Shown: piece after piece, positions 39,742-57,946 of the stretch
Layout of the letters: each line of letters begins with the position of its first letter
Position numbering within the stretch: the first letter of the stretch is position 1
Assembly (NCBI RefSeq): GCF_003334405.1
Contig: NZ_QOWM01000010.1
Source: Escherichia coli
Lineage (GTDB): Bacteria; Pseudomonadota; Gammaproteobacteria; Enterobacterales; Enterobacteriaceae
Length of the DNA stretch: 64,000 nt
Direction: 5' to 3' (one strand)
Made by a program: the position numbers and the translations under genes
Notes under the pieces: model-generated
Told to the model about the DNA's origin: nothing
Database searches by the model: none
The model's input: only the letters and a program-made list of their open reading frames with translations

Positions 39742-40083
39742 AAATCATACTGCCTGTGGATGTGGTGTTGTAACGTTAAATTTTTGTGCCAATCCCTGGG
39801 GATGATACAGCGGTATATTTAAACAATTTTAGCGGGAAATACTCCCAACCAGGCGCGGCGAAGAATAGTTTTTCGATTTACCGCGTTAATGCAGTCAGTA
39901 TGACAGCACCTGAAGCGCAATTTAAACGCTTATAACGTTTTAAAGCAAGGAGGGATCTAAAAACCAGAGGTATATAGCGATAAGAAATCACCAACCAGTA
40001 TAAAACACTATTTCCGTGAAAAAGACATGGCTAATCATGCGAACAAAAAATCACCAACCGTTGTAAAATCTAACGCCCGTATT

Positions 40084-40147: not shown

Positions 40148-41443
40148 TTAATCGCTGTTTTTGGCAATTAAACGTTCCGGGATAACAAAACTGAAACGTG
40201 TTCCTTTTCCTACTGTACTCTCAATATTCAGGCGACTTTCGTGATGATTCACAGCATGTTTCACGATCGCTAACCCTAATCCGCTACCGCCGGTTTGCCG
40301 GGAACGCGCTTTATCAACGCGATAAAAACGCTCGGTCAGGCGCGGAATATGCTCCGGTGCAATGCCCGGTCCGTTATCTTCAACGCTAAATTCGGCACCG
40401 TGCGGCACTCGCTGCCAGCGTACGGTGATATGCGTGCCTTCCGGCGTATGATTCACGGCGTTATAGACCAGGTTCGAAATCGCACTGCGTAGCTGATCTT
40501 CGTTGCCAGACACCTTGAGGCCGTTATCTATCTCAAAGGTAAATGTCTGTTTTTTCTGACTCAGAGTCTGAGCCTCGCGCTCAACAACGCGCAGCATCAT
40601 CGGCACATCAACCTTTTCATTGAGCAAATGCGTCGGTGCGGCTTCTATTTTCGACAGCGTCAGCAATTGCTTCACCAGTCCTTCCATCCGCTGGGTCTGC
40701 TCGCGCATGGTGTGCAACGCTTTTTCGCGTACCGCGCCTTCCAGCGGCTGCTCATTCATCATCTCCAGGTAACCCTGTAACACGGTCAATGGCGTACGTA
40801 ACTCATGGCTCACGTTGGCAAAAAAGTTACGCCGCGCCCCTTCCAGTTGATGCATTTGCGTGACATCACGCGCCACCATCAGCAACTGTTTGTGGGTATA
40901 AGGCATGACGCGAATTTCCAGATGCCGCCCGGTGTTGAGCACCAGATTGAGCGGGCGAGAAAAATCACGCGTTTTCAGATATTGCGTAAACTCCGGGTAA
41001 CGCAGTAGGTTAAGGATGTTCTGCCCGTTATCTTCCGGCCAGCGCAAACCAAGAATTTGTTGCGCCAGACCGTTACACCAGAAAATACCGCCCTCTTCCG
41101 TGGTCAGCACCACCGCGTCGGGCAGCGACTCCGCGCCGCTACGAAAGCGTTTAATCAGATTGCCCAGTTCACGGCGGCGTTTTTTATTTCGCAGCTGCAT
41201 CTGGTGTAAGCCGTATAGTAGCGGTTCCCAGCTACCACGCCCCGGTGGCGGGGTCATACTGCGATCCACCCACAGCCACCATGAAAGGCGCAATAAATTC
41301 CAGAAATGCCAGATAAGCAGTCCTGTTACCGATGCCAGCAAAAACCAGGGCAGGTAACCAAAAAATGCACCCAGGATGAAAGCCGGGAGGCAGCAAAGTA
41401 GCAGCTCCAGCACCAGCCTTTTCCACGACAGCCGTTCCAGCAC
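40148..41443 (-). CDS. phoR: phosphate regulon sensor histidine kinase PhoR
   Basis: ORF track 431 aa; H-box [12 protein letters not shown], HATPase C-terminus. Confidence 0.97.
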
Positions 41444-41500: not shown

Positions 41501-42190
41501 TTAAAAGCGGGTTGAAAAACGATATCCTGTACCGCGCACGGTCTGCACCATGCGGTCATGCCCGCCGGGCTCCAGTGCTTTACGCAGGCGACGAATGTGG
41601 ACATCGACCGTGCGGTCTTCCACATACACGTTAGTTCCCCAGACGTGGTTTAACAGCTGCTCGCGGCTGTACACGCGCTCAGGATGCGTCATAAAAAAGT
41701 GCAGCAGTTTAAATTCTGTCGGCCCCATCTCCAGCGGCTCTTCGCCCGCCATCACTCGGTGAGATGTCGGGTCGAGACTTAATCCCTGCATCTCAATCAC
41801 CTCTTCCACCGCCATTGGCGAAATACGGCGCATTACCGCTTTGATTCGCGCCACCAGCTCCTTCGGCGAAAACGGCTTGGTGATATAGTCATCCGCGCCG
41901 GTTTCAAGGCCGCGCACGCGATCTTCTTCTTCCCCTCTGGCGGTCAACATCACCACTGGAATATCCCGGGTCATCGACTCGCGCTTGAGGTGTTTGATGA
42001 ACTGGATACCGGAGCCGCCAGGTAACATCCAGTCAAGGAGAATTAAATCCGGCCAGGGTTCATTCAGTTGATTCACAGCACTGTCATAATCTTCCGCTTC
42101 GACCGGCTGAAAGCCATTTTGTTCGAGCACGAAGCAGACCATTTCGCGAATTGGAGCTTCATCTTCTACGACCAGAATACGTCTCGCCAT
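41501..42190 (-). CDS. phoB: phosphate regulon response regulator PhoB
   Basis: ORF track 229 aa ([17 protein letters not shown]), OmpR-family winged helix. Confidence 0.97.
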
Positions 42191-42244
42191 GATTTGCCCT
42201 GTTGTAATAAATAGGTTGCGATCATTAATGCGACGTCATTATGC

Positions 42245-42272
42245 GTCAGATTTATGACAGATTTATGAAAAG
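42245..42272 (-). promoter_or_regulatory. Pho box (PhoB binding site) of the phoB promoter
   Basis: Minus strand reads TTTTCATAAATCTGTCATAAATCTGA, two CTGTCAT-type repeats 11 bp apart, about 55 nt upstream of the phoB ATG. Confidence 0.7.
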
Positions 42273-48051: not shown

Positions 48052-48256
48052 TCATTACTTATTGCCGGATGCGGCGTGAACGCCTTATCCGCCCTACGCG
48101 GTTCTGGCACATTTTGCAGGCCTGATAAGACGCGGCAAGCGTCGCATCAGGCATCGGAGCACTTATTGCCGGATGCGGCGTGAACGCCTTATCCGGCCTA
48201 CGGTTCTGGCACCTTTTGTAGGCCTGATAAGACGCGGCAAGCGTCGCATCAGGCAT
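48052..48256. repeat. BIME cluster: two tandem ~100-bp units, each with a convergent pair of REP palindromes
   Basis: Unit A 48052..48153 and unit B 48160..48256 are near-identical (TTATTGCCGGATGCGGCGTGAACGCCTTATCCGGCCTACG ... GTAGGCCTGATAAGACGCGGCAAGCGTCGCATCAGGCAT). Confidence 0.8.
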
Positions 48257-55730: not shown

Positions 55731-56051
55731 TCAGGCGGCTTTCTTGAGGCAGGCACTCATAAACTTATTACGATCATCACCTTTCAGAGATTGTTGTGTT
55801 GCTTGATTATTGCATTCGCGCATCTTTTGCTGCTGTGGCGTCAAACTTTTTTCGCCAGGCGCAGACTTGCTGTTCTTCAGGCAATCACTCATGTAGGTCT
55901 TACGAGCATCCCCTTTCAACGCCTGCGCCGTCGCCTGCTGATTACAGGAGGTCATACGCTGTTGTTGTGGGGTTAAAGTTCTCTCGGCAGCGCCGACGGT
56001 GGTTAAAAAAACCAGACCGAAAAGCAAGGTAACCAGTAATGTTATTTTCAT
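55731..56051 (-). CDS. psiF: phosphate starvation-inducible protein PsiF (106 aa)
   Basis: ORF track 55731..56069 trimmed to ATG 56051 (MKITLLVTLLFGLVFL); repeated LTPQQQ...C motif. Confidence 0.88.
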   Translation of the reverse strand: MKITLLVTLLFGLVFLTTVGAAERTLTPQQQRMTSCNQQATAQALKGDARKTYMSDCLKNSKSAPGEKSLTPQQQKMRECNNQATQQSLKGDDRNKFMSACLKKAA

Positions 56052-56120
56052 AGCACCATCCCTCTTCATGTTTTAACCATGAGCGTATGCGCCCGTGATC
56101 TGCCATTAAGTCTGGTTGCT

Positions 56121-56163
56121 AACAGCAAAAAAACCACCCGGCAGCGAAAATTCACTGCCGGGC
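56121..56163 (-). terminator. hairpin terminator between phoA and psiF
   Basis: CCCGGCAG-CGAAAATTCA-CTGCCGGG followed by T-run on the minus strand; probably partial, since psiF is reported co-transcribed with phoA. Confidence 0.55.
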
Positions 56164-56169
56164 GCGGTT

Positions 56170-57585
56170 TTATTTCAGCCCCAGAGCGGCTTTCATGGTG
56201 TAGAAGAGATCGGTCTGGTCGGTCAGTCCAACAACATTGGCGGCATGCGGGCCATACGCCGCAATACGCAACTGACTGCCGGTATGTTCTTGTGAATCCT
56301 CTTCGGAGTTCCCGTAACTCATCACCATCACTGCGCCATCTTTGGTATTTAGCGCCTGGGTGAGGCCCGGAGCTTTGGTATCCGGCGCAACAATCTGGCT
56401 GGCGTGGGCGTGATCAGCGGTGACTATGACCAGCGTGTTACCCTCCTTTTTAGCGAATTCCAGCGCCCGTTGTACGGCTTCATCGAGATCGACCGTCTCG
56501 CCAATTTGCCCACAAGGATTCGCAGCATGATCCTGTTTATCGATTGACGCACCTTCAACTTGCAGGAAAAAGCCTTTCTCATTTTTACTCAACAATTCAA
56601 TGGCTTTGTCGGTCATCTGCGCCAGGGTTGGTACACTGTCATTACGTTGCGGATTTGGCGTACAGGTGACTGCGGGCTTATCGATATTGCCATGGTACGT
56701 TGCTTTCGGTCCTAGCCAGCGCACTGGCATATTGCCGTCAGCAAACAGGCCAAGCAGGGGTTTTTGCTGATTCGCTTCCGTCACCGAATTCAGTGAGGCA
56801 GCATCGCTCACCAACTGATAACCACGCGCCTGTGCCTGTTCACGCAGCGTTTTTCCCTGCCATTCACCAGCGGTTGCCGTTTCAGCAAAGGTTTTTGCGC
56901 CGCCGCCAAGCGTAACGTCGGCACGAGCGTTAAGCAGCTGTTCGGTAATCGATCCTTTTCCGCCTTTTTCCAGAGCGTTACCCGGACATTTTTCACTGGT
57001 CGCGCTCGGACCGTAGCATTTGCGCGAGGTCACATGTGCCACCAGCGCAGCGGGCGTGGCATCCTGCAACTCTGCGGTAGAAACGTTACCGGTCGCCAGA
57101 CCTGCGGCTTTTGCCATTTCCAGAATCGTTGGGTGATCTTTTTCGTGAATATCGACGCCCAGCGCGCCGTTATAGGTTTTGACACCGGTTGACCAGGCGG
57201 TTGCTGATGCAGCCGAGTCGGTGACGTAGTCCGGTTTGCCGGTTTTTTTATTCAGCGCATAGTGAGTGTATTGCCCGGTAAGCGGTAAGGCATCTATACC
57301 TTTAAAAAAGCCGCCCGCACCTTCGGCATAATTACGTGCGGCAGTAATTTCCGAGTCCCCCATCCCATCGCCAATCAGCAAAATAATATTTTTTGCAGGT
57401 TTATCGCTAAGAGAATCACGCAGAGCGGCAGTCTGATCACCCGTTAAACGGCGAGCACCGCCGGGTGCAGTAATATCGCCCTGAGCAGCCCGGTTTTCCA
57501 GAACAGGCATTTCTGGTGTCCGGGCTTTTGTCACAGGGGTAAACAGTAACGGTAAGAGTGCCAGTGCAATAGTGCTTTGTTTCAC
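56170..57585 (-). CDS. phoA: alkaline phosphatase (471 aa, GTG start)
   Basis: ORF track 56170..57654; known GTG start at 57583..57585 gives (M)[34 protein letters not shown]; active-site DSAAS motif. Confidence 0.95.
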
Positions 57586-57647
57586 TTTATTTTCTCCATG
57601 TACAAATACATTAAAAAATAAAAACAAAGCGACTATAAGTCTCGGCC

Positions 57648-57665
57648 GTGACAACTTTATGACAG
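57648..57665 (-). promoter_or_regulatory. Pho box of the phoA promoter
   Basis: Minus strand CTGTCATAAAGTTGTCAC about 60 nt upstream of the phoA start, with a TATAGT -10-like element downstream. Confidence 0.7.
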
Positions 57666-57685: not shown

Positions 57686-57946
57686 TTACTGACGAGGATG
57701 CTTCAATAACTTCTTTACGTAATCGCGCAGCAGCTCCGTATCGTCGTCAGGAATGCTGGCATCGGGCTTTACCTCGTACAGCGCCCCCTCTACCTGATCA
57801 ATCAACCGCTGTTGGTCATTTTGCGCCATATTGCGAAGCATTGCAGTGACGATAATCTCCAAAGCTTCTACCTGCGCACACAGTTCTTTCGACTCTTCTT
57901 CTTTTTGGGCAAGCTTAAATAACAACTCAGCAATGAGATTTTTCAT
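57686..57946 (-). CDS. iraP: anti-adapter protein IraP (RpoS stabiliser)
   Basis: ORF track 86 aa ([22 protein letters not shown]), coiled-coil. Confidence 0.92.

Follow-up and report, generated by a model that had tools for sequence, protein, structure and literature searches.

The promoters of the Pho regulon follow a common plan. At pstS, the strongest of them, as at phoB and phoA, an architecture of 11-bp repeats goes together with PhoB-dependent recruitment of RNA polymerase; pstS has two full Pho boxes, phoA has one, and phoB has one plus weak auxiliary sites. Structural work on PhoB-DNA and PhoB-sigma4 has established that PhoB contacts region 4 of sigma-70. For phoB, coupled positive and negative autoregulation has been described (Gao & Stock 2018), and mutation of both half-sites of the repression site relieved repression in reporter assays (PMC6194859). 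PhoB ChIP-seq in K-12 yielded 65 bound regions, and in the same study deletion of phoB lowered phoA RNA from 310,112 to 1,548, a 200-fold loss (PMC10294691); phoA-psiF and phoBR are listed among the positively regulated operons.

How does the locus analysed here compare? The window, a stretch of 64,000 nucleotides from E. coli, is the reverse complement of approximately 395.3-459.3 kb of K-12 MG1655, at 99.96% identity. BLAST aligns window positions 31332-64000 with NC_000913.3 395332-428000 in reverse orientation (99.966% identity, 11 substitutions) and positions 1-31331 with 428001-459337, also in reverse orientation (99.94% identity, 13 substitutions and one 6-bp gap), so that the strain differs from MG1655 by 24 substitutions and one 6-bp indel over 64 kb. 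For window positions of at least 28140, the K-12 coordinate equals 459332 minus the window coordinate. Of 5426 complete E. coli genomes, 5425 match a 1.6-kb piece around the phoB box, and phoR, phoB and sbcD are annotated beneath it. The genes that matter for the argument are the following.

40148-41443, minus strand: phoR, from the annotation, 431 aa
41501-42190, minus strand: phoB, from the annotation, 229 aa
40148-42190, minus strand: phoBR operon, from the annotation
42380 (start), plus strand: sbcD
55731-56051, minus strand: psiF, from the annotation
56170-57585, minus strand: phoA, from the annotation, GTG start
55731-57585, minus strand: phoA-psiF operon, from the annotation, co-regulated as one operon in published RNA-seq
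57686-57946, minus strand: iraP

The proteins PhoB, PhoR, PhoA, PsiF, SbcD and IraP are all identical to those of K-12, which bears out the gene identities (phoB and phoA-psiF) given in an earlier note made from the letters of this DNA. Regulator and sensor kinase of the Pho regulon are both present and intact, with no internal stops in PhoB or PhoR; phoB itself differs from the MG1655 gene by a single synonymous base change at 42035.

The 6-bp indel is an in-frame deletion relative to K-12 in tsx (start 27325, plus strand), at approximately 28139-28145. Two residues, Gly-Asn, are thereby lost from the repeat NFGNGNFN, close to the C-terminal end of this receptor for phage T6 and colicin K. 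Slippage in a GGCAAC tandem repeat appears to be the origin, and the junction sequence is shared by only 28 of 5426 complete E. coli genomes. In the araJ-mak intergenic region (48057-48256), the alignment against K-12 revealed two repeat copies of roughly 98 bp each that match one another at 95% in inverted orientation, and within them Rfam places a match to naRNA4, a nucleoid-associated ncRNA and REP-type element (79.8 bits, 48119-48198, minus strand). The sRNA sraA lies between clpX and lon at 522-617 on the plus strand (Rfam match, 106.7 bits).

The earlier note had pointed to two Pho-regulon promoters within 16 kb, each with a directly readable Pho box, and both strings are indeed there. 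The 26-mer TTTTCATAAATCTGTCATAAATCTGA upstream of phoB occurs exactly once in the window, on the minus strand at 42246-42271, and the 18-mer CTGTCATAAAGTTGTCAC upstream of phoA exactly once, on the minus strand at 57648-57665; the boxes are 15.4 kb apart. The interval 42245-42272 assigned to the former is TTTTCATAAATCTGTCATAAATCTGA padded by one base on each side, and both strings are written in gene sense, the plus strand carrying their reverse complements. At up to two mismatches, no further copy of either string was found in the window or in 100 shuffles of it. As a description of the phoB box, the 26-mer holds for its canonical 18 bp; the remaining 8 bases belong to other elements, namely a weak third half-site and an antisense auto-repression site. 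The phoB promoter reads as follows.

42249-42270, minus strand: activation Pho box of phoB, made up of two 11-bp half-sites in tandem, standing where a -35 element would be
42238-42248, minus strand: weak third half-site TGACGCATAAT, in phase with the strong repeats, includes the -10 hexamer CATAAT
42234-42254, plus strand (antisense to phoB): low-affinity PhoB auto-repression site, overlaps the -10

Scored with a half-site matrix, the two strong repeats TTTCATAAATC (42270-42260) and TGTCATAAATC (42259-42249) reach 10.3 and 13.1 bits, and 10 bp separate the 18-bp box from the -10 hexamer at 42243-42238. Published PhoB ChIP-seq places a peak here at 417093 (score 11), on K-12 sequence identical to the window (PMC10294691). 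On the opposite strand, the auto-repression half-sites CGTCATTATGC and CGTCAGATTTA, which overlap by 1 bp, score 7.0 and 4.1 bits. Their core, CGTCA-TTATG-CGTCA at 42234-42248 on the plus strand, contains conserved CGTCA tracts at 42234-42238 and 42244-42248, and the EMSA probe phoB-rp (AATGCGA CGTCA TTATG CGTCA GATTTAT), for which a KD of 4.9 uM was reported (PMC6194859), is identical to window positions 42227-42255 on the plus strand. In its letters, the promoter has what the coupled positive and negative autoregulation of Gao & Stock 2018 requires.

Is this arrangement also retained beyond the window? Of 5426 E. coli genomes, 5413 carry without change a 44-mer that spans the phoB box and its -10. 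For comparison across species we anchored the search on degenerate coding sequence for the PhoB N-terminus, so that the box itself was not required; this gave 120 loci from one-genome-per-species contigs (nearly all Enterobacterales, with a few Vibrionaceae), 111 of them usable. Taking from each of these the top sense-strand match in the 200 bp ahead of phoB, we find 15.6 bits or more in 109 of the 111 (median 20.6); these boxes, in approximately 20 sequence variants that keep the motif, lie mostly 66-87 bp before the ATG. Aligned with the window, 98 distinct upstream sequences have almost no identity to it upstream of 42272, 80-100% identity over 42271-42233, and lower identity again until the ribosome-binding site. 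Given this footprint, the conserved block comprises the box, the third repeat, the -10 and the repression site, and so fits what would be expected of a composite operator.

The 26-mer could also be taken as a whole, as one extended activation box of three equivalent repeats rather than an activator site of 18/22 bp abutting a repression site. Such an arrangement has some appeal, as TGACGCATAAT stands in phase with the two strong repeats and is equally conserved (columns 42238-42248 are 90-100% conserved in the 98 distinct upstream sequences), and as FIMO gave Gao & Stock an additional half-site adjoining the phoB box (PMC6194859). The scores speak against equivalence, however: the third repeat reaches 0.5 bits on the half-site matrix, far from the values of its two neighbors, and it includes the -10 hexamer, which is sufficient alone to account for its conservation. 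The opposite strand offers two better half-sites, and it is their mutation that relieved repression (PMC6194859). We consider three equivalent repeats unlikely, and retain the reading of a two-repeat activator box next to a repression site.

The phoA promoter is simpler.

57643-57665, minus strand: phoA Pho box, half-sites TGTCATAAAGT and TGTCACGGCCG, with the 18-mer CTGTCATAAAGTTGTCAC at 57665-57648
57632-57637, minus strand: phoA -10 hexamer TATAGT, read from the sequence, 10 bp downstream of the 18-bp box

On the half-site matrix TGTCATAAAGT scores 10.8 bits and TGTCACGGCCG 4.3 bits. Extra half-sites flanking this box in 11-bp phase were sought and rejected (scores of -3 to -12 bits), and TTTTCAACAG, which by eye may be read as an upstream half-site, is likewise unsupported by the half-site scores. 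ChIP-seq places a PhoB peak at 401676 (score 20) with the site TGTCATAAAGTTGTCACG (PMC10294691). Both phoB and phoA thus carry two tandem 11-bp repeats with a TGTCA-type core and an A/T-rich tract, and at both the box stands on the gene strand, in place of a -35 element and approximately 10 bp before the -10. A consensus sigma-70 scan around each box found no -35/-10 pair and no -35 consensus at either promoter, as is expected of activator-dependent promoters with a box at -35, and we do not count this against either of them.

Conservation in orthologous promoters holds for the phoB box; that of the phoA box was examined within E. coli, and broad conservation of the PhoB site at phoA has been reported (PMC10294691). 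For a 44-mer of the phoA promoter, 4640 E. coli genomes match exactly and 599 differ at a single base, and a 91-mer shows a one-base difference in 846, so that roughly 600-850 of 5426 genomes differ by one base across the promoter. The two variant genomes that we inspected carry C for T at 57654, the first base of repeat 2 (TTGTCAC to CTGTCAC), a natural polymorphism at a low-information position of the Pho box in which C is nearer to the textbook consensus. In Origami2-DE3, only the upstream 38 of the 91 bases of the query match, and the match stops within the promoter; Origami strains carry an engineered phoA deletion, which would fit.

The earlier note had proposed a scan with the PhoB matrix, both to set the two boxes against background and to look for further sites, for example near psiF or brnQ. 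Table 1 of Fitzgerald et al. 2023 (PMC10294691) lists motif instances at ChIP-seq sites, and 56 of these went into an 18-position matrix; the three instances inside the window were excluded, and the source organism of the remainder is also E. coli. Both strands were scanned (approximately 128,000 positions) with 200 dinucleotide-preserving shuffles as background, and p-values from the exact score distribution were converted to matches expected per window. The highest-scoring matches are these.

42253-42270, minus strand: phoB box, rank 1, 21.36 bits, 5e-4 expected per window
57647-57664, minus strand: phoA box, rank 2, 19.92 bits, 4e-3 expected per window
42071-42088, plus strand: site inside phoB, rank 3, 16.21 bits, 0.2 expected per window
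27188-27205, minus strand: site upstream of tsx, rank 4, 14.17 bits, about 1 or more expected per window

The phoB and phoA boxes exceed every one of the 200 shuffles, whose maxima average 14.8 bits with a highest value of 19.43 bits. Matches of 10-14 bits are approximately 2-3 times commoner in the window than in whole-window shuffles, an excess that probably reflects AT-rich intergenic DNA; for this reason only the top three matches carry meaning. These three coincide exactly with the only ChIP-seq peaks that fall in the K-12 range of the window, 401676 (phoA), 417093 (sbcD/phoB) and 417245 (within phoB) (PMC10294691). The scan for further sites thus did recover a third real one, inside phoB and already published.

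Might the lower-ranking matches include functional Pho boxes that place psiF, brnQ or tsx under PhoB control of their own? Candidates of the appropriate kind exist: 56035-56052 (plus strand) over the psiF start at 12.8 bits, 39774-39791 (minus strand) upstream of brnQ at 11.3 bits, and the 14.2-bit match upstream of tsx, in the tsx-yajI intergenic region. Yet matches of these scores are expected by chance 2.4, 5.8 and 1.0 times per window, respectively, those at psiF and tsx lie on the strand opposite to the gene, and the 65 ChIP-seq regions include none of the three (PMC10294691). Additional boxes of this sort are very improbable, and the suggestion of one near psiF or brnQ finds no credible candidate. 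A further PhoB-like match over the tsx start (27324-27341, minus strand, 12.6 bits) is at chance level, with no ChIP-seq peak reported.

Could the two promoter strings themselves be fortuitous, AT-rich and without a regulatory role? This is barely conceivable: weak PhoB-like matches are indeed common, with 25 of at least 10 bits in the window and up to 26 in the shuffles, but the scores of 21.4 and 19.9 bits lie outside that population, both boxes immediately precede known Pho genes, on the correct strand and with the correct -10 spacing, conservation of the phoB box extends across Enterobacterales, and published ChIP-seq and RNA-seq back both sites (PMC10294691).

We therefore read the two boxes as the native PhoB-dependent sigma-70 promoters of phoBR and phoA-psiF, to which, together with the model that follows, we assign a probability of roughly 97%. 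The anatomy, matrix scores and conservation behind this model were computed here, and binding, activation and auto-repression come from published work on identical K-12 sequence. Upon phosphate limitation PhoR would phosphorylate PhoB, and PhoB~P would occupy the Pho box as a head-to-tail dimer, on its two direct repeats of 11 bp. With the box at the -35 position, 10 bp upstream of a usable -10, bound PhoB is predicted to recruit RNA polymerase by way of region 4 of sigma-70. At phoB, occupancy of the box would result in positive autoregulation of phoBR, until, at high levels of PhoB~P, the protein would also fill the low-affinity site that overlaps the -10 on the other strand and so cap phoB expression. 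The model also includes the third PhoB-bound site, inside phoB and approximately 180 bp downstream.

Are intragenic transcription factor sites inert noise or not? This is a live question, and the third site, if selected, would be a candidate exception in the regulator's own gene. It is ATTCACAGCACTGTCATA, at 42071-42088 on the plus strand, antisense to phoB codons 35-40 (YDSAVN), and is the motif called at ChIP-seq peak 417245 (score 5) (PMC10294691). Fitzgerald et al. 2023 count it among 36 intragenic PhoB ChIP-seq sites, a class that they called 'transcriptionally inert', and left codon constraint as a possible cause of its conservation in about half of the species examined (PMC10294691). 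An antisense promoter here, directed toward sbcD, can be discarded: the hexamer at canonical spacing is TTCGAC (42098-42103), which is not a -10, and deletion of phoB leaves the level of sbcD RNA as it was (274 vs 271; PMC10294691).

Do codons alone explain the motif? The E. coli YDSAVN codons are the second best of 768 synonymous encodings for the PhoB matrix (top 0.15% with codon-usage weights), and of 44 orthologs with YDSAVN 82% reach 12 bits or more, where codon usage would predict 4.9%. For a scan of synonymous divergence the species were kept constant, which gives equal phylogenetic depth for each window of six codons: 42 Enterobacteriaceae that share these six residues, from at least a dozen genera and with 89-97% identity in PhoB. 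The median observed/expected divergence of such windows in phoB is 0.78. The lowest values, 0.22-0.33, are found at the 5' end (codons 2-9), and the only other trough is a separate one of 0.32-0.48 at codons 32-37, with 0.8-0.9 on either side. The site window ranks 11th of 190 by divergence, or 13th of 190 in a second run (5th of 179 internal windows), a ranking drawn from species that share ancestry and are not independent, on six third positions, and for an a-priori window that is approximately one of 30 independent ones. All windows of lower divergence lie at the 5' end or overlap the site.

The third bases show where this constraint falls. When the 75 codon positions with two-fold degeneracy are ranked by conservation, codon 36 (GAC, 98%) comes first and codon 35 (TAT, 95%) third. 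Across the 42 species:

Codon 35: third base T in 40 of 42; motif position 16, high information
Codon 36: third base C in 41 of 42; motif position 13, high information
Codon 37: third base T in 22, C in 20; motif position 10, low information
Codon 38: third base all four; motif position 7, low information
Codon 39: third base G in 32 of 42; motif position 4, high information
Codon 40: third base C in 29, T in 13; motif position 1, low information

Third bases are thus near-fixed at informative motif positions and free at low-information ones, a pattern in synonymous sites which suggests that the DNA, and not the protein, is under selection. Serratia and Yersinia, where N40T produces CGTCAC, retain the site, and Photorhabdus, Rahnella and Providencia have lost the motif (scores below 0). 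RNAalifold on the 42 orthologs, a weak test, found no conserved mRNA structure over codons 33-40, the site being mostly unpaired. Selection for PhoB binding, rather than genomic noise, would make the site a third operator of phoB autoregulation; this we hold to be possible, on balance doubtful. A selected site may act as a roadblock, or as a partner of the promoter box in cooperative binding or looping.

Everything concerning the two promoters is already known. They are intact textbook phosphate-starvation promoters, add no new biology, and confirm that the window is the E. coli phoA-phoB region with intact Pho circuitry. The earlier note had recorded them in just this sense, as known biology that confirms the annotation frame and shows the regulatory DNA to be intact, an assessment with which identity to K-12 at both promoters agrees. 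The synonymous conservation that tracks the PhoB motif at the intragenic site is the sole mildly new result.

Set beside the known systems, the window has the K-12 form throughout. The whole published phoB promoter fragment, from GCCACGGAAATC to ACAGGGC (Makino 1986; Gao & Stock 2018, PMC6194859), is identical, such that Pho box, -10 and antisense repression site are common to both and the promoters do not differ; the phoA promoter, with Pho box CTGTCATAAAGTTGTCAC and -10 TATAGT, is likewise the K-12 allele. The pstS site TGTCATAAAACTGTCATA stands near the consensus of the PhoB matrix. Like the other intragenic sites of Fitzgerald et al. 2023, ATTCACAGCACTGTCATA is without a -10 at promoter spacing; unlike most of them, it is conserved in about half of the species.
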